From the IMG/VR virus record IMGVR_UViG_3300045988_102159, positions 1-64,000 of that record: 64,000 nucleotides of DNA; one strand, written 5' to 3'. Positions 5,325-58,674 of the stretch are shown one piece after another. The number at the start of each line of letters is the position of its first letter. The stretch's first letter is position 1. The notes below the pieces were generated by a model. That model worked only from the letters and a program-made list of their open reading frames with translations. It ran no database searches and was not told the DNA's origin. The DNA comes from a virus. The position numbers were made by a program, and so were the translations under genes.

Positions 5325-6755
5325 ATGTCTAAGTTTAATGAAAAGATTAAGCCAGAGCGCGCTATGTCATACGAGGGCGGCGATAATTACAAGAAGGATG
5401 TTCTTGAAGATTGGATGAACTTCCTTTTCTCTAGCAAGATGGACGATGGTTTCTATGAGAATGCCGCTACGCAGCAGACTCGTTTCATCGAGCTTACCAA
5501 TCTTGTAATTGATAAGTATGGTGCTGAGTTTGCCGGAAAGTGCGCTATGTTTGCGCGAAATCAACTAGGTATGCGTAGTGTTTCACATCTTGTTGCGGCA
5601 ATGCTGAATGGTCAGAGCTTTGAGCGCAAGCGCGATTTCTACAAGGCTTTTTGTCATCGTCCTGATGACATGTCTGAGATTTTCGCTGCTGTTGACATGC
5701 TTGGCGGCAAGCGTTCTCATGCTATGGTTCGTGGATTTGCAGACTATATGTCTGGTCTTTCTGAGTATAATCTTATGAAGTATCAGATGAAGGGCAAGCG
5801 CTATAACATGTATGACCTTATCAATATCATTCATCCTAAGAGTGATATTGTTGATGATTACATGAATGGTAAGCTAGAAGCGGCTGATACTTGGGAAGTC
5901 AATATCTCCACTGGCAAGGATAGCTGGAAGAACATGGTTGAGGGTAATCGTCTCGGTTATCTTGCTCTTATCCGCAATTTGAATAACATTCTTTCAGATA
6001 ATGTTGATGATGAATGGATTAAGCGCAATCTTGTAGACCAGCTTATCAATGAAGTTTCTATCAAGAAGTCTCTTGTATTTCCTTATCAGATTTATACCGC
6101 TTATCGTAATCTGAAGATTCAGAACTTTGCTGTCATTACGGCGCTTGATACTGCTTTCCGTATTGCCTGCGGCAACATGCCTAAGCTGGAAGGTAATTCC
6201 GTTATCATGCTTGATGTCTCTGGTTCGATGGAAGACCGATACGGAAATAAGTCTAATCTTACCATTAAGGAAGTAGGCGCTTGCTATGCTGCTGCTCTAT
6301 ACATCAATGGTAACTGCGATTTTGTAAAGTTCGGCAACGATGCAAAGTCTGCAACTTTTAAGAAGGCTTGCGGACCGTTCCAAGTCATTCGTGAAATGTG
6401 TGAGAACGATAATTGCGGTTATGGAACTGATATTGCTCCTGCTTTCGGTATTATCAGTGACAAAAAGTACGACCGCATCTTCGTTATCTCTGACATGCAG
6501 GTGATGGCAAGGCAGTACACTTATTGGGGATACAGCACTGACGGTATGCGTAACTATAATAATTACTGCGCCGCACATGGCCGCACGATTCTTTATAGTT
6601 TCGACCTCGGCAACTATTCTAGTCAGATTGCTAATCCTAATAATTCTGACGTTCACCTAATGACAGCTCTGAATGATAACGTTTTCAAGATGCTTGAGTA
6701 TGTAGAAAATGGTGGTAATCTGTACGACTACATCAACGATAACTACCATTTCTAA
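5325..6755 (+). CDS. TROVE/Ro60-like protein with C-terminal vWA domain
   Basis: 476 aa. N-terminal SYEGGDNYKKDVLEDWMNFLF...FYE resembles the TROVE start. MIDAS motif MLDVSGSM and later ISDMQ match a vWA domain. Size and order fit bacterial Rsr. Confidence 0.6.
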   Translation: MSKFNEKIKPERAMSYEGGDNYKKDVLEDWMNFLFSSKMDDGFYENAATQQTRFIELTNLVIDKYGAEFAGKCAMFARNQLGMRSVSHLVAAMLNGQSFERKRDFYKAFCHRPDDMSEIFAAVDMLGGKRSHAMVRGFADYMSGLSEYNLMKYQMKGKRYNMYDLINIIHPKSDIVDDYMNGKLEAADTWEVNISTGKDSWKNMVEGNRLGYLALIRNLNNILSDNVDDEWIKRNLVDQLINEVSIKKSLVFPYQIYTAYRNLKIQNFAVITALDTAFRIACGNMPKLEGNSVIMLDVSGSMEDRYGNKSNLTIKEVGACYAAALYINGNCDFVKFGNDAKSATFKKACGPFQVIREMCENDNCGYGTDIAPAFGIISDKKYDRIFVISDMQVMARQYTYWGYSTDGMRNYNNYCAAHGRTILYSFDLGNYSSQIANPNNSDVHLMTALNDNVFKMLEYVENGGNLYDYINDNYHF

Positions 6756-11218: not shown

Positions 11219-12307
11219 AAGAGATAGTCTGGCCCTTATCTGTTTTTCCGCTTATCAGCGGGGTCGCAAATGCGGCTAACGAGGGAGTCTAACCACTATT
11301 ATGAATAATATCTGGGCGAAAAGGGATTAGCCGAGTATTATATTTTTCATATATAGTAGAAGATAATCTCGTGGAAAATATTTTACTATTACATAAATTA
11401 TCTTCTAATGTTTTTATATATAGAAAGAAGGTAGTTTATGAGTTTTAAGACTTTACATGAACAATATAAGCGTCCAGAAAATATTACTGGAATTTATAAA
11501 ATTACTAATTTAATTAATAATAAAAGTTATATAGGAAAAAGCATACATATCCCAAGACGATTTTTAGAACATAGAAGTTCAAATGAATGGCAACGAAATC
11601 CAAATAAACCGTTATATCTTGCTTTTAAGAAATATGGATTAGAAAATTTTACCTTTGAAGTTATAGAAAGATGTTCTAAAGAAGAATTAAATGAAAGAGA
11701 AAAATACTGGATTGCTAAATTAGATACTCAAGATTCTGATAAAGGATATAATATTACGGCTGGTGGGGACGGACATGATTCAGATGAAAATCATCCAAAC
11801 CATAAGTTGACTAGGCAAGACGTTATAGATATACGCACTAGGTATGGCAATCTAGAACGAAAAATGGATGTAGAAGAAGATTATAAGGATAAAATTGGAC
11901 CTAGTGGTTTCGCTAAAATCTGGAAAGGTGAAACTTGGAGCGATATTATGTCAGAGGTATATACGGAAGAAAATAAAAAATTCCATAAAAATGATACTGG
12001 GTTAAAAGGTTCTAAGAATGGCAGAGCTTTACTAACTGAGCAAGACGTTTATAATATTCGTTTACGAAAAAAACAAGGCGAACATTGGGAAAAAGTATAT
12101 GAAGATTATAGACATACTGGAATTAAAAAATCTTCTTTTCATTTAACTTGGGATAATAGAAACTGGAAACATGTAATAGTAGAATAAATCTGTAACGACT
12201 ATCCACGTTGTGGTGGAATACTAGCGCTATTGATACGCGCTGGGAAAATGTAGACTGCTTATAGCAGAAGAAATAGTCTGTACTCAATAGAAATATTGAG
12301 ATTTACG
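11219..12307 (+). mobile_element. group I intron 2 in topoisomerase B gene, with GIY-YIG ORF
   Basis: 1089 nt. Guide gccctt (11232-11237) pairs with exon end aagggt, with U.G at the splice site. Ends in G12307. Splicing rebuilds KG-L-GE. Confidence 0.8.
11438..12187 (+). CDS. GIY-YIG homing endonuclease (intron-encoded)
   Basis: GIYKITNLINNKSYIGKS...RRFLEH...YWIAK...GYN. Confidence 0.85.
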   Translation: MSFKTLHEQYKRPENITGIYKITNLINNKSYIGKSIHIPRRFLEHRSSNEWQRNPNKPLYLAFKKYGLENFTFEVIERCSKEELNEREKYWIAKLDTQDSDKGYNITAGGDGHDSDENHPNHKLTRQDVIDIRTRYGNLERKMDVEEDYKDKIGPSGFAKIWKGETWSDIMSEVYTEENKKFHKNDTGLKGSKNGRALLTEQDVYNIRLRKKQGEHWEKVYEDYRHTGIKKSSFHLTWDNRNWKHVIVE

Positions 12308-12492
12308 TAGGTGAACAGGATGCTGACGAATTATCATATTGTCTATTAGACCCATCCACTCGAAACATCAGTCTGCTAACTGTTGAAGATGTTGAAAAAG
12401 CAAATAATATGTTCAATGATTTATATGGTAAAAAGGTTGAGCCGAGAGTAGAGTTTTTAAATAAACACTTGGAGGAAGCAAATATTGGATAA
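12308..12492 (+). CDS. gyrB: type IIA topoisomerase subunit B, exon 3
   Basis: Encodes (L)GEQDADELSYCLLDPSTRNISLLTVEDVEKANNMFNDLYGKKVEPRVEF, collinear with the GyrB C-terminus. The three exons sum to 1878 nt (625 codons plus stop). Confidence 0.8.
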
Positions 12493-12706
12493 ATCAAATC
12501 TTATTGAAGTTGTTCAACAGAATTTTATTGACAGCTCATATGATGTAAATTGTAATAGGGCTTTTCCAAATGTTAAAGATGGATTAAAGCCTGGCCAAAG
12601 ATGTATTCTATGGGAAATGTATACAAAAAAATATACTAGTGACAAACCGCATGTTAAATCAGCAAAAATTGACGGAGGTGTAGCGGCGCTGTACTGGCCG
12701 CACGGT
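12485..12706 (+). CDS. gyrA: type IIA topoisomerase subunit A (GyrA/ParC-like), exon 1
   Basis: TTG start overlaps the subunit B stop. Encodes RAFPNVKDGLKPGQRCILW...KSAKIDGGVAALYWPHG, the GyrA N-terminal signature. The frame stops 3 codons after HG. Confidence 0.8.
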
Positions 12707-14088
12707 AGAATTAACTAATAGATTATATTTTTTATGGGCATATCTCTATTATTTTGTATATCTATTTTTTATATTATATAGCGATAAATAATATAAGAAA
12801 GGATATAAATATGAAAGCAGTAAAAGTATCAACCTATGAAGCAACTAAGTTTTATATGGAAGAGAATGAAAAAGGTTTGTCAAAATCAAAAGTAGCAGAT
12901 ATGTTTAAAATAGATAGGCATAGTTTTTGTAAATTAACTTGGAAAGATAAGTATAAAGAATTAGTATTTCCAAAAGAAGACAATGGATATTGCTATTATT
13001 TTGAACCAAAAGAATGGGAAGCAATTCAAGAATATATAAATAATCCTAATATTACTAAAAAAGAAATTAGAGATAAATATAATATATCTCAAAATGGAGT
13101 TTTTAGTCATTGGCTAGAGGTTCTTGGATACGAGGATACAGTTAGATATAAATACAATTTTAAAAGAGATATTTTTAGAGAAGAACCAACTCCAGAAATG
13201 GCATATTGGCTTGGTTTCTTATTAGCAGATGGTTGTATTATTGAAAATAAAATCAAAGGGAATTCAAAAGATTATATTTCATATAATGTTACTGTTCGTC
13301 TTGGAGATAAAGACAAAGAACACGTATATAAATTTGCTAAGTTTTTACAATATCCAGAAGAAAAATTAAATGAAGTTATTAAACCTTGCTATGGCGGTGC
13401 TTATGACAGGAATAATCTTTGTTGGGTTATTGATGTTTGCAGCACTGATTTATGTAAAGACTTACAAAAATATAATATTACTCCAAGAAAAAGCCTAAAA
13501 GAAAAGCCATTTATTTTTAATGATAGAGAGCTTGAATTAAATTATATTAGAGGTATTATTGACGGCGATGGATGGATTAGAAAACCCACTACAAGAGATT
13601 TAAGAATGGGTGTAGTTGGTTCAGAAGAAGTTTGTAATTATATTAGCAGTGTTTTAAAAGAGTATTTTCCTCATAAAATGGAACATGCAAAACCAAAAGC
13701 CCATAGCGAAAGTATTAGTTCAGATTTATATTATTGGCAAACGACTTGCCGAGAAGGAACTAAAAACGTATTAGAATTATTATATCCAGAAAATTGTCCT
13801 ATTTATTTAGATAGAAAATATGATTTAGCGCGTGCCGTGCTAAAACTGCTGAATTAAGCGGGAAAGCTAAGTTTAATATTAAATTAATATTGAATATGCT
13901 AATCCGAACCGAAGGCTAGTAATAAAATATTAGTCAGGGGCAGAGCATAGAAGATGAAACTGTAATTACAGAATATAATTCTTCCAAGAGTCAGCGGCTA
14001 CTTAATAATTTAAGTAGAAAAGATATGCCGAACTTATAGGAAACTATAAGAAATAGAGGATAAAAAGCCTTTATGATAACAAAAATTG
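12707..14088 (+). mobile_element. group I intron in topoisomerase A gene, with LAGLIDADG ORF in the P1 loop
   Basis: 1382 nt. Guide gccgtg (13834-13839, inside the ORF 3' end) pairs with exon end cacggt. The 3' 230 nt are homologous to the dnaB intron. Ends in G14088. Confidence 0.75.
12811..13857 (+). CDS. LAGLIDADG homing endonuclease (double-motif)
   Basis: ATG 12811 follows RBS aaggat. Two dodecapeptide motifs: LGFLLADGCI and IRGIIDGDGWI. Confidence 0.85.
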   Translation: MKAVKVSTYEATKFYMEENEKGLSKSKVADMFKIDRHSFCKLTWKDKYKELVFPKEDNGYCYYFEPKEWEAIQEYINNPNITKKEIRDKYNISQNGVFSHWLEVLGYEDTVRYKYNFKRDIFREEPTPEMAYWLGFLLADGCIIENKIKGNSKDYISYNVTVRLGDKDKEHVYKFAKFLQYPEEKLNEVIKPCYGGAYDRNNLCWVIDVCSTDLCKDLQKYNITPRKSLKEKPFIFNDRELELNYIRGIIDGDGWIRKPTTRDLRMGVVGSEEVCNYISSVLKEYFPHKMEHAKPKAHSESISSDLYYWQTTCREGTKNVLELLYPENCPIYLDRKYDLARAVLKLLN

Positions 14089-15945
14089 ACGCAAGCAATC
14101 TACGAAACCTTTGCTCGTATGTCTCAGCCTTTTACCAACAATGTACCAGAGGTTGATTTTCATGGAGCGAATGGCAATGTAATCTTGGGTGGAGACGCAA
14201 TCGCCGCAGACCGTTATACAGAAGCACGTCTTTCTAAAATTACAGAAGAGTTCATGCTTAATGGTATTGAAAAAAATACAGTTCCAATGGTTCTGAACTT
14301 TAGCGAAGACGAATATATGCCAGTAGTATTACCGTCATATTTTCCTAGACTTCTTGTTAATGGTGCTCAGGGCATCGGCGTTTCGATTGCCAATAATTGG
14401 TTGCCGCATAATCTTAAAGAAACAATTAACTTAATTGGAAAATATGTTAAAACAGGAAAATTTGAAGCAGATGAATACTATCCTGATTTTCCTACTGGTT
14501 GTACGATTGTTAATAAAGATGAGTTATCTTCAATCAATGAAACCGGAAAAGGTAAAGTAATTGTAGAAGCTACATATAATATTGATGGTAATGAAATTAC
14601 TTTTACTGAAATGCCATATCAAGTATACATAGAACCTTTAATTGCAAAAATTAAAGAACTAATTGAATCAGAAGATTTAATTGGTATTAAAGATGTATAT
14701 AACAAGAGTGACAAAAATGGCATAGCTTTAGTTGTTGAATGTCAAAAAGGATATACGGCAGAAAATGTATTACAGCAGCTATTCCAAGCAACTCCTTTAA
14801 GGTCGCAATATAATGTTAATCAGAATGGAATTATCAGTAAAACGCCAGTGCTTTTAAATTTACAACAAACTGTAGACGAATATCTGTTCCATTGTTTTGA
14901 ATGTTTGAAACGTGAAACTGAATATGATAAGAATCTTGCTGCACAAAGGAAAGAGATTCTAGAAGGATTAAAGTTTGCTTTAACAAACATTGATAAAATT
15001 ATTGAAATTATTCGTGGCTCAAATGATAAAACAAGTGCGGCAAATGAACTTAAAAAAGAATTTGAATTTACAGATAGACAAACTAAATCAATTCTTTCAA
15101 TGCCACTAATGAAATTAACTAAGTTGGATACTCAATCAATTAAAAAAGAGCTAATAGAAAAGAATGAAATCATTGCAAAGTGTGATTTAATCTTAAATGA
15201 TAAAAAGGAACTTGATAAAGTATTCTTAGCAAAGCTCAAAGATATGGGCAGGAAATATAGCACTCCACGCCGCACTAAAGTAGTCCAAAAAGAAATTACA
15301 AAGACGAAAAAGGCAAGGTCTTCTGCGCCAAAAGAGAATAGGAATTTTGTTATTGCCTTTAATCCTCTTGGCTATCTACAGAAAGTCTCACCTTCTAAGT
15401 ACAAGAGTGACGGTAGCCTTGCATTTACTGTATCTGAAGATAGAAAAGTAGCTTTGTTCTCGAATAAAGGACGATTCTTTAGGATTGCTCTTTCAGATAT
15501 TAAAGAATGCGGACCAAAGGATAAGGGAACAGCTATCGGTGCAATTATCAATCTTGATAATGACGAAAAAATTATTACAATTCACAACGATGTATTCGTA
15601 GATAAGCCTTATATGTTCTTTGTTACAGAGGACGGCAAGGTTAAGAAGTGTGAAGGTAAACAATTCGCTGGCGGCACACGTAACGTTAAAGGTTCTGTGG
15701 CCTTTAAGACCGATAGCAAAATTGTCAGCATCCAAGAGACAAATGGATGTGTTGTAACATTAACGTCAACCAAGAGACAGATTAGTTTCATGGCTGATAG
15801 TGTGCGGGCAAGCAGTATTCGCTCTGGCGGCATGTGCGGCATTAAGCTAGACGATGATGATAAGATTGTATCCATGACAATCACTGAGCCGCAGAATTTC
15901 ACAGGTAAAATTGCAAACAAGGGTGGACGAGGGATTCTTCTTTAA
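14089..15945 (+). CDS. gyrA: type IIA topoisomerase subunit A, exon 2
   Basis: Begins TQAIYETFARMSQPF, gap-free against GyrA DSAVYDTIVRMAQPF but with T where Asp is canonical. Catalytic-Tyr context AADRYTEARL; C-terminal beta-rich domain. Confidence 0.8.
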   Translation, partial: TQAIYETFARMSQPFTNNVPEVDFHGANGNVILGGDAIAADRYTEARLSKITEEFMLNGIEKNTVPMVLNFSEDEYMPVVLPSYFPRLLVNGAQGIGVSIANNWLPHNLKETINLIGKYVKTGKFEADEYYPDFPTGCTIVNKDELSSINETGKGKVIVEATYNIDGNEITFTEMPYQVYIEPLIAKIKELIESEDLIGIKDVYNKSDKNGIALVVECQKGYTAENVLQQLFQATPLRSQYNVNQNGIISKTPVLLNLQQTVDEYLFHCFECLKRETEYDKNLAAQRKEILEGLKFALTNIDKIIEIIRGSNDKTSAANELKKEFEFTDRQTKSILSMPLMKLTKLDTQSIKKELIEKNEIIAKCDLILNDKKELDKVFLAKLKDMGRKYSTPRRTKVVQKEITKTKKARSSAPKENRNFVIAFNPLGYLQKVSPSKYKSDGSLAFTVSEDRKVALFSNKGRFFRIALSDIKECGPKDKGTAIGAIINLDNDEKIITIHNDVFVDKPYMFFVTEDGKVKKCEGKQFAGGTRNVKGSVAFKTDSKIVSIQETNGCVVTLTSTKRQISFMADSVRASSIRSGGMCGIKLDDDDKIVSMTITEPQNFTGKIANKGGRGILL

Positions 15946-15973
15946 TCTACCCTTTTCTTTCTATTGGAGGAAT

Positions 15974-17008
15974 ATGTCTCTAAATATTTATCCCGCAATG
16001 CTGGTGGGCAAAGCACCAAAGAATTATGAGGACATGTTAAAAAATGTTCCCATTATTGGTACAGTCAAAAAAGATGGATATTTCTCGCAGTTAGTAAAAG
16101 ATAACAACGAGGTTCATCTGTATAGCCGCACAGTTTCTAAAAAGACCGGTTATTATAGTGACAATATTGAGAAGGTGCCGCATATTAAAAATTGGGCTAT
16201 GAATGAACTTCCAAATGGTACATGTATTATCGGTGAGGTTTATTATCCTAATGGTACCTCTAAGAACGTAACATCAGTCCTAGGTGCTCTACCAGAGAAA
16301 GCTATTGAACGTCAGAAAGGCGAGTACGGCAAAATTCATTTTTATATGCACGATATGCTTGCATATAGCGGCGAAGATTATGTTATGAATAATGTAACAT
16401 ATGATTACCGTTATAGTAATCTTTGTGAGTACATTGATATTGCCACTCCTTTAATTCCAGAACTTGAAGTTGCACAATGTTATGATAACGCTTATCTAGA
16501 CCTCGATAAGGTCACAACTGATAAACTTGCCGCAGGTGAAGAAGGTATGGTATTTCGTGTAGAGAATGGTCTATATGCACCTGGTAAGCGACAGCCAAAA
16601 GTCATGTTCAAAATTAAGCAGGCACAGAATGATATTGATTTTGTGATTACAGAAGTTCTGCCGCCAGAGTATCTTTATACTGGTAAAGAATCTGAGACTT
16701 GGCCGTATAAAGATAAAGAAGGTAATCTAATTACAAAGGCCGCATATTATGGTTGGGCTGGTGCCTTACGACTTGGCGCATATGATAATGCGGGAAATCT
16801 TGTGTCTATTGGTCGTGTATCTTCTGGTCTTACAGACAATCTTAAAGCTGACCTTGCAGCCAATCCTGATAAATATATTGGAACTGTTGTAGAGGTAAAC
16901 TGTATGAGTCTTGACAAGAAGAATAAAACTTTTAGGCATCCTTATCTGTCTAGGCTTCGTCCTGATAAACCAGCACATGACTGCAAGCTAGAAGAAATTT
17001 TTAGCTAA
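15974..17008 (+). CDS. lig: ATP-dependent DNA ligase
   Basis: ATG 15974 follows RBS ggagg. Motif I TVKKDGY, motif III IIGEVYY, motif IV EGMVFR, motif V MFKIK. Confidence 0.8.
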   Translation: MSLNIYPAMLVGKAPKNYEDMLKNVPIIGTVKKDGYFSQLVKDNNEVHLYSRTVSKKTGYYSDNIEKVPHIKNWAMNELPNGTCIIGEVYYPNGTSKNVTSVLGALPEKAIERQKGEYGKIHFYMHDMLAYSGEDYVMNNVTYDYRYSNLCEYIDIATPLIPELEVAQCYDNAYLDLDKVTTDKLAAGEEGMVFRVENGLYAPGKRQPKVMFKIKQAQNDIDFVITEVLPPEYLYTGKESETWPYKDKEGNLITKAAYYGWAGALRLGAYDNAGNLVSIGRVSSGLTDNLKADLAANPDKYIGTVVEVNCMSLDKKNKTFRHPYLSRLRPDKPAHDCKLEEIFS

Positions 17009-29750: not shown

Positions 29751-32255
29751 GTGCTTGACAAATATCCCGGCAGCCTTCACAACCATACAGATTTCTCAAA
29801 TCTTAGACTTAAAGATTCAATTAACACAGTAGACCGTTTAATGGATTATGCTTTGGAACTTGGTCAAGATGTATTAGCCTTTACAGAGCATGAATCAGTA
29901 GCTAATGCAGTCAAGATTCAAGAAGCATATGAAAAGCGCAAACAGGATAATCCAAATTTCAAAGTGATTCTTGGCAATGAGATATACCTGGTCCGCAATG
30001 GGCTTAATAAAGATAATTTTAATCCAGAAGAAGATAGGTATTTTCACTTCATTCTATTGGCTAAAAACACAGAAGGCCACAAGCAAATTCGTGAGATTTC
30101 AACGCGAGCTTGGATGCGTTCTTATATGGCTCGTGGTATGCGGCGAGTGCCAACATATTATCAAGACTTAATTGATATTATCGGTAAAAATAAAGGTAAC
30201 GTTATTGCTTCAACCGCGTGCCTCGGAGGGCAATTACCAGCTTATCTTCTCAAATATAAGCAAACAAACGATAAAGCATATATTAAACAAGCTATCAAAT
30301 GGCTTAATGGAATGGTTAAACTTTTCGGCAAGGGTAATTTCTTTCTAGAAATGCAACCTTCTAATAATGAAGAGCAAATCTATGTTAATAAGTTGATTAA
30401 AGAACTATCTCATAAATTAGATATTCCATATATTATCACTTGTGATGCTCATTATTTAAAGAAAGATGAAGCATTCATCCATGAGACATACTTGAAATCT
30501 CAAAATGGTGAGCGTGAAGTCTCTGAGTTCTATGCAACTACCTATCTCATGGGAACAGAAGAACTTGAAGAATTCTTTGAATATTTTACAAAAGAAGATA
30601 TCTGTGCCGCATATGAAAATATTGAATATATTAAGAATCAATGCGAAGATTATAATCTTAAAAAGCCTTTAAAGATTCCTCAACTACCTTGGAAATATAG
30701 CTATATCACAGACGAGCAAGTAAAATCTTTTCAAGATAAAATTCCTAACCTAAAATATCTTACTGAATCTGATTTTGAAGGTGACAAACTTCTTGGCAGA
30801 CTAATTATTCAAGGCATCCAAGAGAAAGAAGATTTACAGAATCAAGATGCTTATGATGAAATCAACATTGAACTAGAGTCTGTCTATCAAAGTTCTCTTG
30901 TAAATAAAACGCATTGGTCTTCATATTTTCTTAACTTGCAGAAAATCATTGATACCATTTGGGAAGCCGGTTCTATTGTTGGCTGTTCAAGAGGAAGTGG
31001 CGGTGGCTTCCTTATCTTATATGTTCTGGGCATTATCCAGATTAACTGTCTAAGAGAGACTACAAAGACATTCCACTGGAGGTTCCTTAATCCCGCACGT
31101 GTCTCTGTCTTAGATGTAGATATTGATGTATCTGGTCTGCGCCGCAAGCAAATCTTAGACAAGTTTAGAGAAGTCTATGGAGAAGATAGAGTCTGTAATG
31201 TTCTTACTCTTGGTACAGAAAGTACGAAATCAGCCATTCTAAGTGCGGCAAGAGGTCTCGGAATTGATAATGATGTGGCGCAATACATTGCTTCTCTAGT
31301 CCCTTCTGACCGTGGCTTAATTCGTTCTTTGCATCAATGCTACTATGGCGATAGCAAAGAAGGAATGAAACCAGTTATTCCTTTTGTCAATGAAATGAAG
31401 CAGCGTCCAAAACTGTGGGAAGTTGCTTGTCGAATTGAAGGTCTAATTTGTCGCTCTGGAATACACGCGGGAGGACTTGTCTTCGTTGATGAACCATTTA
31501 CGGAGACGGCGGCTCTTATGCGTGCTCCCGATGGGACTATTATTAGTCAATTTGACCTCCACGACTTGGAGAAATTATCGCTCATTAAATACGACTTGCT
31601 TTCGGTCGAGGCGATGGACAAGATTCAGGTCTGCCTTGAACTGTTAGTAAAATACGGTTATCTTAAATGGTCTGGAACCCTGAGAAAAACTTACGAAGAT
31701 GCTATCGGTATCTACAATCTAGAACGAACAGATTCTAAGATGTGGAAAATGGTATGGGAACATAAGATTCAATCTTTATTCCAAATGGAAAAGTCAAGTG
31801 GAATTCAAGGCATCGCGCTAACACATCCTAAATCTGTTGACGATTTAGCCACTCTTAACAGTGTGATTCGACTTATGGCGCAAGAAAAAGGCGCTGAAAC
31901 ACCTCTTGAAAAATATGCAAGATTCAAGAAAGATATTTCTTTATGGTATCAAGAAATGGACTCTTATGGTCTAACAAAAGAAGAACAAAAGATTCTTGAA
32001 CCCGTTCTTAAAATCTCTTATGGTCTGTGCGAGTCTCAAGAGCGCTTTATGATGCTTGTCCAGATTCCAGAGTGTGGCGGCTTTGACCTAAACTTCGCCG
32101 ATCGGTTAAGAAAATCTGTCGCAAAGAAGGACCCGGCTGGATACAAGGCTTGTGAAAAGGAATACTTTGAACGAGTCCAAGAACGCGGCTTGAGTAAAAA
32201 CCTTTGCAATTACGTATGGAACGTATGTGTCGCAACAAGTCGAGGATATGGCTTT
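29751..32255 (+). CDS. dnaE: DNA polymerase III alpha subunit (DnaE-like), exon 1
   Basis: GTG start. PHP domain SLHNHTDFS...AFTEHES. The exon ends ...ATSRGYGF and the frame stops 3 codons later. Confidence 0.8.
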
Positions 32256-32540
32256 AAAACGAATTGAAGCCCTATATAGTGATATATAGTACAAATTGCC
32301 TAACATGCGGGAAACTCCTAAAACTTTATATTACTAAACTAATACAGCAATGTATTAGCGGCAAAGAGTAATGTCTGAGATATAGTAATAAGATATAAAG
32401 ATATGTGGACAATCCGCAGCGAAGTTTCTATTTAAAATAGAAAAACGTTCAGAGACTATAATGGCACATCTTATATAAGATGAAGGTATAGTCCAGACAG
32501 CAACCAGTTTACTGGGCTTATGAAAATTAGTGCTGTAAAG
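32256..32540 (+). mobile_element. ORF-less group I intron in dnaE (285 nt)
   Basis: Guide gaagcc (32266-32271) pairs with exon end ggcttt. Ends in G32540. Shares core blocks with the Sak4-gene intron. Confidence 0.8.
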
Positions 32541-53910: not shown

Positions 53911-54435
53911 TTATTCACTCCTTTCATTGCTCTTTTGGCTTACAATAAATTGTGGATTGGAAAGATTGATTCTCGGTAGTTCGCGTATCTCTTCCATTAA
54001 GCCATCAATGAATGAGTTGCCGCCTGCCGCTTTGTAATATAAATATCTGCGCTCCAGAGATTCTAGATTAAGGTCATCAATAGCCTTGATTTCATAGCAA
54101 AAATAGTGATGCTTGTCAATGATATAACTGCGAGAATTTTCCTGCAATCTTTCAAGAGTAAGTTTTTCATGCTCTTGTAGTGTTTTAATATCATTCGATT
54201 GATTGCTAATTTCTTGACTAAGTTTTTTAATATCTGCTTGCAACGAAGCAATACTTTCTATAATCTCAGAGTGCTTTGTATCTTTAAGTGTCTGATAGTT
54301 GAAATATTTTTTTAATTTATCATAAAAATATTCCAATAGCTCACTTAAAAATTTAAAAGCGACAGCTAAAGTCACAACTAGCATAACGATAGCTCCGAAA
54401 GAGTATTGCGACACCAGTTGCGACAAAGCATCCAT
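53911..54435 (-). CDS. membrane-anchored coiled-coil protein
   Basis: The internal ATG at 54435 avoids overlap with tip paralog 5. TM FGAIVMLVVTLAVAF, then coiled coil. Confidence 0.45.
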   Translation of the reverse strand: MDALSQLVSQYSFGAIVMLVVTLAVAFKFLSELLEYFYDKLKKYFNYQTLKDTKHSEIIESIASLQADIKKLSQEISNQSNDIKTLQEHEKLTLERLQENSRSYIIDKHHYFCYEIKAIDDLNLESLERRYLYYKAAGGNSFIDGLMEEIRELPRINLSNPQFIVSQKSNERSE

Positions 54436-54514
54436 TCTCGGCAATATCCCTTCTTCTCTACATAGTCTAATATAATATGAAAATAATTTGCATTTGATTT
54501 TAGGAATTTGCCCA

Positions 54515-54547
54515 TAAAAAAACGAGGGAAACATAAAGTTTCCCTCG
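54515..54547 (-). terminator. intrinsic terminator closing the tip-gene array
   Basis: On the minus strand, cgagggaaac-tttat-gtttccctcg followed by ttttttt. Confidence 0.75.
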
Positions 54548-54553
54548 AATAAA

Positions 54554-55030
54554 TTAAGCTGTACGTCTGTACATATTACAGGTGATGTATGCGGGGCGTG
54601 AATCCCAATATAACTCTTTTGTAACCATAACAGGATGTGATATAGAACCAACAGAACTTGCAATATTAGCATTACAACTATGGTTATATTGAGAATGTAC
54701 CTTTGTATCGTCTGCCAACTTAATAATATTATCAGTATATTTCTTTGAATTAGAAACATTCACAAAATTACATAATGATATATCTATGTCTGCATTCCAA
54801 GTTGGAACGATTGTGCCATACCAAGCACCATATACATACGAAAAGCCGATATTACCAGAAAAGCCACCAGTAGAATTCAGGGCATTGTTTTCACTAGAGG
54901 ATTGTAAAAATTTCCCATCAATCTTTTCCCAAGAGCCACCAACTGAATCTACTGGAGATACATCGCTAAAAGTAATATATACCGAACCAATAGGATAAAC
55001 AATGTCTAGGAGGTTAACAAAATTTGACAT
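54554..55030 (-). CDS. receptor-tip (tail-collar-like) paralog 5
   Basis: 158 aa: MSNFVNLLDIVYPIGSVYITFSDVSPVDSVGGSWEKI ... NMYRRTA. RBS aggagg. Confidence 0.7.
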   Translation of the reverse strand: MSNFVNLLDIVYPIGSVYITFSDVSPVDSVGGSWEKIDGKFLQSSSENNALNSTGGFSGNIGFSYVYGAWYGTIVPTWNADIDISLCNFVNVSNSKKYTDNIIKLADDTKVHSQYNHSCNANIASSVGSISHPVMVTKELYWDSRPAYITCNMYRRTA

Positions 55031-55054
55031 TATGCAACACCTCCTAGCATATAG

Positions 55055-55453
55055 CTAGGCTGTTCGGAAATAGATGTTAAAAGCCCTGTACTTTGGACGA
55101 TTGTCAAACGGCTTATAAGAATATTGCGCATCTTGGTTCTTGCCATCAGCAACGCGTGACACATCAAAACCATAAACACCGTTGCCCGGAGCAAAGAAAC
55201 TAATAGTTTTTGGTAATCCAAACGCGTCGCAAGTGCCGCCTGTAACCCAAACATTTGACGGCAGATTTGCGACAGAAAGTTTACCTTCATTTGTTCCACC
55301 TGTTGCACCGGGCGTTCCATTGCAAATGAAAGTGTCGCTGTCGAGCTTCGTCCATGTTCCACCAATTGAATCTGCTGGTGAGACTGAATTATTTGAGATA
55401 AATACTGACCCAACTGGGTAGACAATATCCAAGAGGTTAACGTAGTTAGACAT
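55055..55453 (-). CDS. receptor-tip (tail-collar-like) paralog 4
   Basis: 132 aa: MSNYVNLLDIVYPVGSVFISNNSVSPADSIGGTWTKL ... NIYFRTA. RBS gaggtgg. Confidence 0.7.
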   Translation of the reverse strand: MSNYVNLLDIVYPVGSVFISNNSVSPADSIGGTWTKLDSDTFICNGTPGATGGTNEGKLSVANLPSNVWVTGGTCDAFGLPKTISFFAPGNGVYGFDVSRVADGKNQDAQYSYKPFDNRPKYRAFNIYFRTA

Positions 55454-55471
55454 ACGCCACCTCGCTTAGAT

Positions 55472-55852
55472 TTAAGCGGTTCGATACCAGATGAAGCAAG
55501 TTGTGTAGGGCGGCAAGTTGTTGTGTGCTGCCCCCCCCCCTGTAAAGTTACCTTGATTGTCATTCGCTGATAAATAATTACTACTGCTATTAGAGCAGGT
55601 CACGCTAGAACCACCAAAAGCTGATGCCCATGTTGATACCCATAATCTATGATGATGATTAGGCATTTCATCAATAGTCAAGGTATGCGTTGCTTCGCCG
55701 CCAGTTTGATTTGCAGTATCAGCACCATAAAGGAATGTCTTAATCTGTGTCCATGTACCACCAATAAAATCAGCAGGTGATGTTGCATCCATGCTTTGAT
55801 AAATTGAGCCTACTGGATATACAATATCCAATAGGTTTACAAAATTACTCAT
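55472..55852 (-). CDS. receptor-tip (tail-collar-like) paralog 3, containing an in-frame G10 tract
   Basis: 126 aa: MSNFVNLLDIVYPVGSIYQS...GGEATHTLTIDEMPNHHH...FTGGGAAHNNLPPY...WYRTA. The GGG codons come from the homopolymer. Confidence 0.7.
   Translation of the reverse strand: MSNFVNLLDIVYPVGSIYQSMDATSPADFIGGTWTQIKTFLYGADTANQTGGEATHTLTIDEMPNHHHRLWVSTWASAFGGSSVTCSNSSSNYLSANDNQGNFTGGGAAHNNLPPYTTCFIWYRTA
55531..55540 (-). repeat. homopolymer C10 (G10 on the coding strand)
   Basis: Counted directly: ten consecutive C, inside paralog 3. Confidence 0.95.
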
Positions 55853-55896
55853 TTATATCCTTTCTAATTTAATAGAAAGAATATTATAAAATCTTC

Positions 55897-56352
55897 TTAG
55901 GCTGTTCTCTTATATACATTTATAGAATAGTGATATGGAATATGTTGCTGTTGGTCTGTTACAAAATTACCATTATCATCAATTCTCCAAGTATCTTTAG
56001 TCCACAAATTCCAACCAGAATCGCCGCCATCTGCTCCGCCATATGACAAGAATTGCCATGCGTTGCCAGTAGCAGCATTAGTGAGCCAAAAACCAATATT
56101 GGCGTATTGCGCCTTAGCACTATGCCAAGCAAAAACCTGGTGTTGATGGTCTGGAATGGCGAGCTTAGAAATCGTATCACTGCCAGAAAAACGCCCAGCT
56201 AAACTGTAAGTATCGCCACTTGCCGCAAGCAAGCAATTTTCAATTTGTTCCCAAGTTCCGCCGATAGAATCAGCAGGAGAAGTGGCATTGGTAGTAATAT
56301 AGATACTTCCAACTGGATAAATAATGTCAAGAAGATTTACAAAATTAGACAT
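55897..56352 (-). CDS. receptor-tip (tail-collar-like) paralog 2
   Basis: 151 aa: MSNFVNLLDIIYPVGSIYITTNATSPADSIGGTWEQI...PDHQHQ...NVYKRTA. Confidence 0.7.
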   Translation of the reverse strand: MSNFVNLLDIIYPVGSIYITTNATSPADSIGGTWEQIENCLLAASGDTYSLAGRFSGSDTISKLAIPDHQHQVFAWHSAKAQYANIGFWLTNAATGNAWQFLSYGGADGGDSGWNLWTKDTWRIDDNGNFVTDQQQHIPYHYSINVYKRTA

Positions 56353-56396
56353 GGCAAACCACCATGCCTAGAACAGCCATTGAAGAAGAAGCTACA

Positions 56397-56444
56397 TTAC
56401 TGTAGCCCCCCCCAATGACTGTGATTAGTCATTAAGTTTTTCAT
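56397..56444 (-). CDS. leader mini-ORF b (15 codons in the present phase)
   Basis: MKNLMTNHSHWGGLQ, RBS aaaggat. Homologous to mini-ORF a around M-x-N-H-(S/T)-x-x-G-G. Confidence 0.4.
   Translation of the reverse strand: MKNLMTNHSHWGGLQ
56406..56413 (-). repeat. homopolymer C8 (G8 on the coding strand)
   Basis: Counted directly: eight consecutive C, inside the mini-ORF upstream of paralog 2. Confidence 0.95.
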
Positions 56445-56487
56445 AATATCCTTTCATTTAGGATATTAGATAAGTTAATGTGAGTAA

Positions 56488-56886
56488 TTATGCGGTTCTA
56501 CGATACATATGAACTGTTATATATGGTGGCATATTATTATGAGCTTGGCTACCGCCCCTAACTGGATTCGCTGTTATATCCGTATTGCCACCGCCGCCTG
56601 AGACGCCGCCTATGCTATAACCTCCTGAATTGAAATTATAAGATACAGACCAGGCCCATACATTGTCTCTAAACTCGTGATGATGCGCAGGAATTTCATT
56701 AATAGTTAGCTTGTGCGTTTCTTCGCCACCAGTAATACCAGTGGTACCAGCAGAGCCATACAAGAAAGTATTTTCTAATAATTCCCATGTGCCGCCAATA
56801 ACATCTGTCGGAGACGTTTCATTGAATGTTATATATACGCTGCCAACTGGATATATGATATCAAGCAGATTTACAAAATTACTCAT
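56488..56886 (-). CDS. receptor-tip (tail-collar-like) paralog 1
   Basis: 132 aa: MSNFVNLLDIIYPVGSVYITFNETSPTDVIGGTWELL...GGEETHKLTINEIPAHHH...AHNNMPPY...MYRRTA. RBS aggagg. Confidence 0.7.
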   Translation of the reverse strand: MSNFVNLLDIIYPVGSVYITFNETSPTDVIGGTWELLENTFLYGSAGTTGITGGEETHKLTINEIPAHHHEFRDNVWAWSVSYNFNSGGYSIGGVSGGGGNTDITANPVRGGSQAHNNMPPYITVHMYRRTA

Positions 56887-56909
56887 ATAACCCTCCTAGG
56901 TCGAGAGCA

Positions 56910-56966
56910 TTAACTAAGAGGAATGCCCCCCCCCAGAAGAGTATGATTCTTCATGGTATCTAACAT
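56910..56966 (-). CDS. leader mini-ORF a (18 codons in the present phase)
   Basis: MLDTMKNHTLLGGGIPLS, RBS aaaggt. Confidence 0.4.
   Translation of the reverse strand: MLDTMKNHTLLGGGIPLS
56926..56934 (-). repeat. homopolymer C9 (G9 on the coding strand)
   Basis: Counted directly: nine consecutive C, inside the mini-ORF upstream of paralog 1. Confidence 0.95.
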
Positions 56967-57100
56967 CTTTAATTACCTTTCTTATATAATGTTAAATAAA
57001 ATTTTAATAATCTATTGGAAAAGCTCCGCAGAAATTAATTCATTAAACTTATTCACATAAAACTCCTTTTCTTTCTTAGAATTATATTCTATATCTATAT

Positions 57101-57135
57101 GAAAAAAGGGCAAAACCCATAATAGGATTTTGCCC
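57101..57135 (-). terminator. intrinsic terminator opening the tip-gene array
   Basis: On the minus strand, a gggcaaaa/ttttgccc stem followed by tttttt, immediately after the 509-aa fibre gene. Confidence 0.7.
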
Positions 57136-57144
57136 AAAACTATA

Positions 57145-58674
57145 TTAGATTTTAACCCATAGTTTAATATGCTCTTCTGTAGGAGTATCAGTGCCAACAT
57201 ATACAGTACCAACATCATCCGCAAGTTTAGAATTAGTAACAGCTTTATCTGCAATTTTAGCAGACGTAACTTTACCGTCACCAATAGTAGTAGTCATTGT
57301 AATAGGATTTACTGTATTAAAACTTGTGGTAGATGTTGTGATATCACCACTTAATGCAACAGTATTATTAAACTTGTTCGCAGATTGAGCATTGGTGGCG
57401 CTAGTCGCATTACCCTCTACATTACCAGTTAGATTGCCGACAAACTTTGTGGCATATACATAGCTCCATTTAGCATTAGAAGCACCAAGATTATAAGAGT
57501 TATCAACGCTTGGTGTCATTGTTCGGCCAATCAGATTACCAGTTAAAGTACCGCCAGATAGCTTTAAATAGCTTGTATCGTGATTGTGGTTAGCAGTTGC
57601 AGCGCCGATATTAGCGCAAGTAAGATTAACGTTACCCTTACGATAACTTGTCTCAGCATCGCCCTTAACACCCATGACCTCGCCAGCGATTTGCCATGTA
57701 CCATCTCCACAAAGGAACTTATTGTGATTTCCAGCCGCAGGAGCCGGGACAAGACCAGCATTTCCAGCAGAAGAAGCAGTAGCACCTTTCATTATATCTG
57801 GTTTAGTGTTATCTACATCAAACGAAACAGCAGAAGACCCATCAAAAGTAATAGCTTGAGTAGTTGTAGTAGTACCTGTACCGCTAATAAGATTTACTGA
57901 TAAACTATGACTAACTTTACCAGCAGTAGTAGCATTAGTAGCATTATCTGCATTGGCAGCATGAGTGGCTTCAAGCGCTGTACCAGCTTTGTACTCTTGG
58001 TATCCTGCATCAGAATTTAGTTTACTATCATCAACGACAATATACATAACACCAGTATCATCTTGGATAACACTATCGCCAGTCTGTACTTGAGTGTTAG
58101 TTAATTGAAAACGTGCAGTTTTATTTGCAACATGGACTAATCGCTCTAATGCACCGTGTGGAATTGTATTTAAAGGTAACACTCCAGTGACACTTGCGGC
58201 ATCAATTGATGGAATTGTAATAGAGATATTTCCAGAACCATCAAAATTAGCACTGCCTGTGCCACCATTATTGCCGCCTTTAACGCTAATTGAGCGTGCG
58301 TTTTTTAATTTTGTAGCAGTATCAGCATTACCAGTAACGTTACCAGTAAGATTTCCAGTGAATCCGCCATTACCAGTAACCCTACCTGCGAAAGTCGTAG
58401 GAGAGGTAACTGATTGCGCGTTAGTAGTTGTCTTATCTAACTTATTATTTGCGTTATCATTAACAGCCTTTACTGCTTTTGGTGTCGCGGCAACAACTCC
58501 TGTAGCTGCACTATCTGTAGCATCTATAGCATCCGAAAGCCAGACTTCACCGCGCTTGTTGTTGGTAGCATCTGGCGCAACGTAAATCGGCCTATATGTT
58601 TTAAGCGTAGGGTCATACACTTTGGCAACAAAATTATTTTTCATTGTAGAATCATTTGGATTACCTTTAGCCAT
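57145..58674 (-). CDS. tail fibre protein (long)
   Basis: 509 aa. NKRGEVWLSDAIDATDSAATGVVAATPKAVKAV and SAGNAGLVPAPAAGNHNKFLCGDGTWQ are typical fibre motifs. Repeated GNLTGNV. Ends KLWVKI. Confidence 0.7.
   Translation of the reverse strand: MAKGNPNDSTMKNNFVAKVYDPTLKTYRPIYVAPDATNNKRGEVWLSDAIDATDSAATGVVAATPKAVKAVNDNANNKLDKTTTNAQSVTSPTTFAGRVTGNGGFTGNLTGNVTGNADTATKLKNARSISVKGGNNGGTGSANFDGSGNISITIPSIDAASVTGVLPLNTIPHGALERLVHVANKTARFQLTNTQVQTGDSVIQDDTGVMYIVVDDSKLNSDAGYQEYKAGTALEATHAANADNATNATTAGKVSHSLSVNLISGTGTTTTTQAITFDGSSAVSFDVDNTKPDIMKGATASSAGNAGLVPAPAAGNHNKFLCGDGTWQIAGEVMGVKGDAETSYRKGNVNLTCANIGAATANHNHDTSYLKLSGGTLTGNLIGRTMTPSVDNSYNLGASNAKWSYVYATKFVGNLTGNVEGNATSATNAQSANKFNNTVALSGDITTSTTSFNTVNPITMTTTIGDGKVTSAKIADKAVTNSKLADDVGTVYVGTDTPTEEHIKLWVKI

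Follow-up and report, generated by a model that had tools for sequence, protein, structure and literature searches.

Simple-sequence contingency loci are established in bacteria, including Neisseria, Haemophilus, and Campylobacter, and in two cases, lex2A/lex2B of H. influenzae and hpuA/hpuB of N. meningitidis, a repeat in an upstream open reading frame (ORF) controls the gene downstream by polarity or coupling. Systems that diversify the host range of phages include diversity-generating retroelements and invertible tail fiber segments such as Mu Gin and P1 Cin. The original work on polyG tracts in Fletchervirus is reportedly that of Sorensen et al. 2021 (Cell Rep 35:109214). As summarized in PMC12823448 and bioRxiv 10.1101/2025.10.21.683753, hypermutable polyG tracts lie within the receptor-binding protein (RBP) genes of Campylobacter Fletchervirus phages, and homopolymer "contingency loci" in phages generally are the stated topic of a 2025 preprint. 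Translational coupling via a short upstream ORF (uORF) is well known, as the iraD leader (PMC5574718) and an upstream ribosome-binding site (uRBS) survey (PMC13285730) illustrate. Here we analyze a 64,000-nucleotide (nt) stretch of viral DNA, positions 1 to 64,000 of IMG/VR virus record IMGVR_UViG_3300045988_102159 (the window), in which G-runs sit in two short leader ORFs, a and b, ahead of genes for putative receptor-binding tip proteins, P1 and P2.

Loss of one G from either run puts the leader in a frame that ends on the start of the tip gene. Judging from sequence comparisons, we assign a probability of roughly 60% to the explanation that this is a contingency locus whose effect is exerted by translational coupling from the leader ORF. 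PolyG in phage RBP genes and coupling by short uORFs are known; what is new here is a run that would act from a separate leader cistron ending on the tip start. In our literature search, neither a run-gated leader cistron in a phage nor an array of such units in gut phages was described, and the terms "coupl," "leader peptide," and "upstream ORF" do not occur in the text of a 2025 review of phase variation.

The locus resembles Fletchervirus in having phage G-runs of 7 to 11 nt in a receptor-binding module, several runs per genome, and presumed receptor bet-hedging, and a further run, inside the tip gene P3, would work as the in-ORF frameshift runs of Fletchervirus do. It differs in that the runs of leaders a and b lie outside the RBP ORF, in a short cistron whose read-through ends on the RBP start, and in that the phage appears to belong to an unrelated lineage, from the human gut. 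No isolated phage is close: among 50,697 phage records, megablast detected none that matches the locus, and the best matches of the window's DNA polymerase III (Pol III) alpha, at ~38% identity, are from phages of Gram-positive hosts. As in bacterial contingency loci, homopolymer slippage would set the phase, one phase in three would be permissive, and the effect would pass to a downstream cistron; unlike them, the element is a phage-encoded, dedicated leader of 15 to 40 codons with no other apparent function, repeated before many cassettes. The known coupled genes cited above likewise have a leader ORF that is served by a separate ribosome-binding site (RBS), a stop a few nucleotides from the downstream start, and a structured initiation region (predicted here), but their coupling is constitutive or controlled by protein or RNA, whereas here the gate would be a heritable and reversible DNA run length. 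The locus is a possible functional analogue of retroelements and invertible segments, offering alternative receptor-binding ends from one genome. In contrast to those systems, the leaders come without reverse transcriptase, template repeat, recombinase, or inverted repeats, and each cassette would have a separate ON/OFF switch.

Two leader ORFs ahead of the tip genes

Coordinates refer to the whole 64-kb window, and all leader and tip features are on the minus strand. Leader mini-ORF a (56910..56966; ATG at 56966, TAA at 56912-56910) comprises 18 codons and a stop and encodes the peptide MLDTMKNHTLLGGGIPLS; leader mini-ORF b (56397..56444; ATG at 56444, TAA at 56399-56397) comprises 15 codons and a stop and encodes MKNLMTNHSHWGGLQ. 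Each has an RBS of its own ahead of the ATG, AAAGG for leader a and AAAGGA for leader b. The G9 run of leader a (56926..56934) and the G8 run of leader b (56406..56413) leave both in an early-stop phase as sequenced, exactly to the base as the initial annotation had described them. One G fewer or two more (G8 or G11 in leader a, G7 or G10 in leader b) yields the long peptides that it had given, which by frame analysis end at the TAA of ATGAGTAA (56879..56886), overlapping the P1 start, and of ATGTCTAA (56345..56352), overlapping the P2 start. One G more or two fewer again yields early stops; this phase is the tip gene's own frame, and two stops precede the start. No phase of either leader fuses it to the tip gene. 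The distance from run end to tip start, 39 nt for leader a versus 53 nt for leader b, was also correct.

The claim that the two junctions have identical geometry stands in part. The TAA does lie at +6 to +8 in both, but this is trivial because the Met-Ser-Asn codons are conserved (ATG AGT AAT and ATG TCT AAT). The nontrivial part of the geometry is that the frame stays open from the run to the tip start. Homology of the two mini-ORFs, also proposed in the initial annotation, could not be established, since local alignment gave P = 0.07 for the 5' halves and P = 0.23 for the 3' halves.

The two downstream genes, called paralogs 1 and 2 in that annotation, are two of five tandem paralogs of 126 to 158 amino acids (aa) that lie between two terminators and all open with MSN(F/Y)VNLLDI(I/V)YP(V/I)GS. 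All five match the C-terminal domain of the T4 baseplate protein gp10 (Gp10_C, Pfam PF21939) above the curated gathering cutoff of 27 bits: P1 (56488..56886, 132 aa, E = 1.8e-19, 71.5 bits), P2 (55897..56352, 151 aa, E = 7.5e-10, 40.3 bits), P3 (55472..55852, 126 aa, E = 3.1e-21, 77.2 bits), P4 (55055..55453, 132 aa, 35.1 bits), and P5 (54554..55030, 158 aa, 33.6 bits). P4, which starts 18 nt past the P3 stop, and P5 have no run. The only relative of solved structure that we found is gp10 itself, to residues 449 to 487 of which the P1 N terminus aligns weakly (E = 0.19). Unlike in gp10, the domain here is free-standing and begins at its first residue; elsewhere, in PHROG alignments, it is the C-terminal end of long fiber or baseplate proteins.

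The initial annotation had missed this five-tip context, a run-less leader remnant upstream (57056-57012), and a third run within P3. This G10 (55531..55540) is in frame as sequenced, encodes Gly-Gly-Gly before a conserved AHNNLPPY, and is a putative ON/OFF run of the classical in-gene kind. A three-way switch at the same run, by way of a 177-codon ORF (55030-55563, minus strand) that crosses P4 and overlaps the P5 start with TAATG, was considered and dropped, since an open frame of this kind is not unusual under synonymous-codon shuffling (P = 0.20) and is probably due to chance. The G9, G8, and G10 runs are each long enough to slip, for which about 7 nt or more is required. They are the sole G or C runs of at least 6 nt in the 64 kb and all lie within 1.4 kb of the tip cluster; the expected number of G/C runs of at least 8 nt in 64 kb is 0.14. 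A promoter-spacer switch was also rejected, as no promoter-like hexamers span or flank either leader run in a scan of the sigma-70 type.

The window alone is merely suggestive. Dinucleotide shuffles of the segments that follow the runs served as the null model, and the pattern was called strict if one phase was open to the start and the other two were closed within 24 nt. A phase open to the start arises in the shuffles with P = 0.72 (leader a) and 0.74 (leader b), and the strict pattern arises with P = 0.21 and 0.11, respectively, a joint probability of ~0.02 that is only marginally beyond chance. The claim would not be justified by the window on its own, and it is the relatives that carry the case.

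Run length and frame in related gut phages

The comparison drew on 25 IMG/VR relatives found by their fiber protein (contigs labeled L001 to L025 and so on; ~135 to 147 kb, fibers 79 to 97% identical), on further, more divergent lineages found by tip alignment, and on 19 more contigs, labeled human-gut metagenome, that contain the exact 23-nt leader b pattern. The same leaders, with runs of 7 to 11 G, are present in 44 related gut-phage contigs. Tip relatives that have been binned fall mostly in gut Clostridia, Firmicutes, or Bacilli metagenome-assembled genomes. The virus is a phage of the human gut, and its host is probably a member of the Clostridia or another Firmicute, for which these data give a hint rather than proof.

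Runs of at least 7 nt are abundant in the tip region of the relatives and confined to it: the 25 relatives contain 63 in the ~5 kb after the fiber gene (123 kb summed; region 11400-16500 of each locus in L001 to L025) versus 1 in the other 404 kb. The sense strand reads G in all 63 of them and C in none. In the runs inside genes this strand bias follows from the Gly codons; in the leader runs it hints at a constraint at the RNA level or of replication direction. The runs are of two classes. Those of class I are in short leader ORFs such as a and b, and those of class II are within tip genes, close to the C terminus, where the frame is broken in some alleles (L003 at 14925, L012 at 13198, L022 at 12587 and 13496, L024 at 13241) and intact in most (~9/11 by reading of the alleles).

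Run length varies in leader types A to D. Type A, to which leader a belongs, occurs in L003, L007, L080, L157, L160, and L162 to L165 with G7, G8, G9, and G10 and as an interrupted version, GGTGGGGG; its G8 alleles (L157 and L162) encode exactly the predicted read-through peptide MLDTMKNHTLLGGAFLLVNALDLGGLYE. Type B, that of leader b, is represented by 25 distinct versions with cores of 7 to 14 nt, the pure runs being G8, G9, G10, and G11. Read-through to CATGTCTAA or CATGCCTAA is encoded by five pure G10 alleles (L003, L004, L012, L163, and L164) and four others. Types C and D range from G5 to G11. In near-identical contig pairs (L007/L008, L097/L098, and L109/L132), every indel is in a G-run, and L097 and L098 differ at four of six runs (9,9,9,8,9,8 versus 7,7,8,8,8,8).

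The frame logic was assessed with one representative of each of 17 leader families, whose sequences after the run are largely unrelated. In 15 of the 17, one phase is open to within 6 nt of the start (stop at -6 to +5) and the other two are closed within 24 nt, compared to 3.67 expected (Poisson-binomial P of ~4e-10 if the families are independent). The families share some sequence modules and are not fully independent; their effective number is nearer ten, and the excess stays large. An SD (Shine-Dalgarno) sequence precedes the start codon in 15 of the 17 leader ORFs, judged by eye with partial scores. Across the ~17 families the junctions are TAATG, TAAATG, TAGTG, TAATTG, ATGA, GTGA, and ATGNNTAA. 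TAATG is the junction of type C leaders, GTGA that of type E, and ATGGCTAA and TTGGCTAA those of types F and O. Other leaders have the junctions TAAATG (L109-3540), ATGA (L109-4459), TAGTG (L109-2502 and L107-4467), or TAATTG (L107-3501). In 7 of the 17 families, the stop is just before or across the start, at -6 to -2 (TAATG, TAAATG, TAGTG, TAATTG, and TAAatATG), which is the classical coupling arrangement; the read-through stop of leaders a and b is at +5 relative to the tip start. The other leader types precede other tips or extra fiber modules.

Leaders and long intergenic gaps go together. Among the close relatives, a gap of at least 70 nt precedes 24 distinct tip genes, and every such gap has a G-rich core, compared to 0 of 41 for tips with a short gap. 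In sister lineages (L097/L098, 1257-3990; L175, 599-1997; L137-2454), an N-terminal extension of ~23 codons together with its run is fused in frame to the tip, so that read-through is there necessarily ON. The interrupted type A version GGTGGGGG is a frozen read-through allele, and it is kept with an intact tip in at least six diverged genomes. What we observe directly is the G-runs, the polymorphism in their length, and a frame logic that recurs. The mini-ORFs and the stop-start register, the conservation of which in relatives had been set beforehand as the refuting test, are both present there, and on this evidence the switch set by tract length that the initial annotation proposed is supported, with the direction of the switch and the coupling being what we infer.

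Proposed translational coupling and its alternatives

In the favored explanation, hypermutable G-runs sit in short, separately translated leader cistrons outside the tip genes. Slippage in phage DNA replication would alter run length, and run length would determine the phase in which the rest of the leader ORF, past the run, is read. In two of three phases, ribosomes would stop 6 to 14 nt past the run, inside a hairpin, leaving the tip silent or low. In the third, translation would cross the structured region that contains the tip SD and AUG and stop on or next to the tip start, as at ATGAGTAA and ATGTCTAA; the site would be opened, a ribosome would reinitiate, and the tip protein would be made. 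As sequenced, P1 and P2 would be in the early-stop phase (presumed OFF), P3 would be ON via its own G10, and P4 and P5 would be unswitched. Such a design would allow stochastic switching of an alternative receptor-binding tip with no poly-Gly extension on the conserved N terminus (MSNFVNLLD...), and a plausible reason for its indirectness is that this N terminus cannot carry one. Slippage, read-through as the ON state, termination-reinitiation as the effector, and switching within a population are the parts of this scheme that we infer.

RNA folding predictions provide a possible physical basis. For leader a, a hairpin (56890..56942; minimum free energy of -32.9 kcal/mol, z = -2.4) is predicted in which ACUCUUCUGGG and the rest of the run pair with CUCUC...CCUAGGAGGGU, burying the P1 SD; the general type A fold likewise pairs ACUCUUCU and the run with the P1 SD region. 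The type B whole-leader fold (-51.4 kcal/mol, z = -7.4 versus shuffles) has three predicted hairpins. One covers the SD and AUG of leader b (56441..56470, with 56470-56460 paired with 56452-56441) and is present in all type B relatives, in agreement with the 8-bp hairpin over this RBS proposed earlier. A long one (56373..56422) pairs the G-run of leader b with a CUUCUUCUUC stretch and has the early-stop codons in its apical part. The third (56346..56370), of 10 to 11 bp, holds the P2 AUG in its 3' arm, and relatives show only one-sided G-U changes in it. This last hairpin, with AUUUUG after it, was flagged as terminator-like and could give the switch an attenuation-like contribution at the level of transcription. 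The predicted type C fold (z = -4.7) pairs the tip SD with ACCUCUCU, which precedes the run, and CCUCCC with the run itself. A CU-rich, anti-Shine-Dalgarno-like stretch stands directly 5' of most leader runs (CTCTTCT, CCTCTCTA, CTCTCTCTT, CCTTCTCTT, CATCTCCT, or CCCTTCT), for example at 56935-56942 in the window, 11640-11648 in L022, and 3530-3539 in L109; in types A and C its predicted pairing partner is the SD of the downstream gene. The predicted structures fit a model in which translation unmasks the tip start, and their support for it is soft.

Together with a pattern barely beyond chance in the window and the incomplete independence of the families, several observations weigh against a coupling switch. 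The read-through phase is found in only about one-quarter of pure leader runs, ~75% of the sequenced alleles being early-stop, and the modal G9 is an early-stop phase for types A, C, D, and E. Frozen, that is, interrupted, runs show no bias toward read-through, with ~8 independent events each way (6 versus 4 in a first tally), and the tips behind frozen early-stop leaders are intact in 6 of 8 cases. Compensatory covariation was found in 0 of 44 pairs in type B and 2 of 50 in type C, a near absence that is explained by the relatives being too similar. Finally, the energy needed to open the RBS did not differ between leader-preceded and leaderless tips (median of 11.0 versus 11.5 kcal/mol; Mann-Whitney P = 0.81). 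It may be that all tip starts are closed and fed by upstream ribosomes, the leaderless tips starting 18 to 66 nt past the previous tip. Rare read-through in leaders, combined with in-gene runs that are mostly in frame, would fit a default tip with rarely activated alternatives.

Some of these same observations would be expected if the polarity were the opposite, with read-through ribosomes occluding the tip SD and AUG (OFF) and early-stop phases leaving a strong tip SD free (ON). The tip genes are themselves preceded by good SDs (AGGAGGG for P1), their RBS accessibility equals that of leaderless tips, the early-stop alleles (~75%) predominate with tips intact behind frozen early-stop leaders (6/8), and occlusion by a uORF is a mechanism described in the uRBS survey (PMC13285730). 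We nevertheless consider this polarity quite unlikely: it does not need stops at -6 to -2, which 7 of 17 families have and which are a hallmark of positive coupling; read-through is necessarily ON in the in-frame fused versions of the same architecture; the frozen read-through allele is kept with an intact tip in at least six genomes; and folding predicts structure at the tip start sites, which would need ~12 to 13 kcal/mol to open. The leaders might instead lack any present regulatory role and be vestiges of N-terminal extensions that, like those of L097 and L175, formerly had the run in frame; the runs would then persist mainly as microhomology junctions for recombining or deleting cassettes. 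Hybrid leaders joined exactly at the run, the run-less type C remnant in the window, and runs frozen in both phases ahead of intact genes speak for this reading, which we judge unlikely, since a vestige would not maintain one open and two closed phases in 15 of 17 families or retain an SD and start codon on nearly every leader, and it gives no account of the link between long gaps and G-rich cores (24/24 versus 0/41).

The effect could also be transcriptional. An early stop in the leader would uncouple the ribosome from RNA polymerase, and the hairpin at the tip start or Rho would then end transcription, which read-through would prevent. Polarity of frameshifted upstream genes is established in bacterial operons, hairpins directly follow most runs (GCUAC-NNNN-GUAGC), and the hairpin at 56370-56346 with its AUUUUG was flagged as terminator-like, but the U-tracts are short (4 U) and lie in coding sequence constrained by Asn-Phe-Val, P3 to P5 would be lost as well because they are downstream in the same unit, and the stop-start overlaps would not be needed. 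Gating of this kind, itself a variant form of the switch, is improbable in our view. A phase change at the level of RNA or the ribosome, by transcriptional slippage or programmed frameshifting with the hairpin as a stimulator, would produce a fixed read-through fraction that is not heritable. A stable hairpin directly after runs of 8 to 11 nt and the exclusive presence of G on the mRNA strand, a hint of RNA-level constraint, would suit such a change; DNA length differences are, however, seen directly between near-identical contigs, and the hairpin, 0 to 1 nt past the run, is nearer than classical frameshift stimulators. It could add leakiness without replacing DNA-level variation, and as the main mechanism it is very unlikely. 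Least probable is that the run lengths are sequencing or assembly artifacts and the mini-ORFs are chance ORFs. Homopolymers are error-prone, and the geometry in the window has a chance probability of ~0.02; against this stand the 63 runs inside the region versus 1 outside, the same leaders in many independent assemblies, each with a discrete length, and the recurrence of the frame logic across families.

Cassette organization of the tip region

The tip cluster is bounded by terminator-like hairpins. Upstream lies a tail fiber gene (57145..58674, minus strand, 509 aa) with a Pfam Phage_fiber_2 repeat and matches to PHROG tail fiber families. Directly after it, a terminator scan detected a strong hairpin followed by T6 (57108..57135, minus strand), which is kept in relatives ahead of type C leaders and which, as a predicted structure, is taken to mark the 5' boundary of the tip transcription unit. 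A second hairpin, with T7 (54523..54547, minus strand), would close the cluster. No Rfam family scored above threshold in 54400-57400, with sub-threshold matches at the terminators only. Next to the fiber terminator and a conserved AT-rich box, the window has the type C leader remnant (57012..57056, minus strand), which reads GTGAATAAGTTTAATGAATTA...TAG and the 5' sequence of which matches the type C leaders of relatives. Those leaders carry Gn after ...GACCTCTCTA; the remnant has no run. Since the type C leader of relatives has both Gn and a tip gene of its own, deletion of a cassette from the window genome is suggested.

In many of the relatives L003 to L025, one to three extra genes of 130 to 420 aa lie between the fiber stop (~11557) and the first tip, a position where the window has none (for example, L005, 11620-12787, and L023, 11630-13333). 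Their products start with MVSDGTNFSEF..., MAKAYYP..., or VSELYLSDGK... and share the C-terminal motif of the fiber, ...K(L/I)W(I/V)(K/Q)I. For each of these genes a separate G-run leader is found immediately past the preceding stop codon. Some relatives have two switches in series, a leader run followed by an internal C-terminal run (L003, 13531 and 14041; L012, 12800 and 13198; L022, 12189 and 12587; L024, 12844 and 13241); P2 of the window has lost the internal run. Hybrid leaders are joined exactly at the run. A 5' part of type A is followed by a 3' part of type B in L009 (12653-12804), type C by type B in L001 (11589-11740) and L154, and type D by type C or E in L016, L004, L024, L155, and L170 (near 11588). 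The G-run, often with a shared hairpin, CTACTGCGGTAGC, behaves in these comparisons as a recombination joint for the shuffling and deletion of cassettes.

Beyond the tip region, the window encodes gyrase A and B, RecJ, an anaerobic ribonucleotide reductase, and an Amidase_2 endolysin, and it has no tRNA. A TROVE (Ro60-like) domain (E = 5.8e-14) was found in a 476-aa protein (5325-6755, plus strand) whose neighbors are replication genes (Pol III alpha at 29751-32267, gyrase A and B, RecJ, and the anaerobic ribonucleotide reductase).

These features raise the tentative possibility, which we hold less firmly than the coupling switch itself, of a modular, hitherto undescribed host-range diversification system in which free-standing tips and fiber modules each stand behind a leader and G-run unit that serves as both a heritable coupling switch and a recombination joint. 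If so, 3 to 8 independent switches per genome would give many receptor-binding combinations in one lysate, with the protein itself unaltered. Because the run is placed in a leader cistron, the switched protein needs no repeat of its own. This would be a new switch design, a slippery run in a disposable leader cistron with the decision relayed by a stop-start overlap, and it could be engineered. In metagenome annotation, such loci resemble the noise of "frameshifted" genes or "hypothetical small ORFs," and consensus assembly hides the mixture of states, so that host-range prediction from one assembly will be incomplete. If the coupling switch is real, phase-variable RBPs would reach beyond Campylobacter phages to uncultivated phages that are abundant in the human gut, have genomes of ~140 kb, and probably infect Clostridia or other Firmicutes. 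Host-range bet-hedging would then have a third route, in addition to retroelements that generate diversity and segments that invert.

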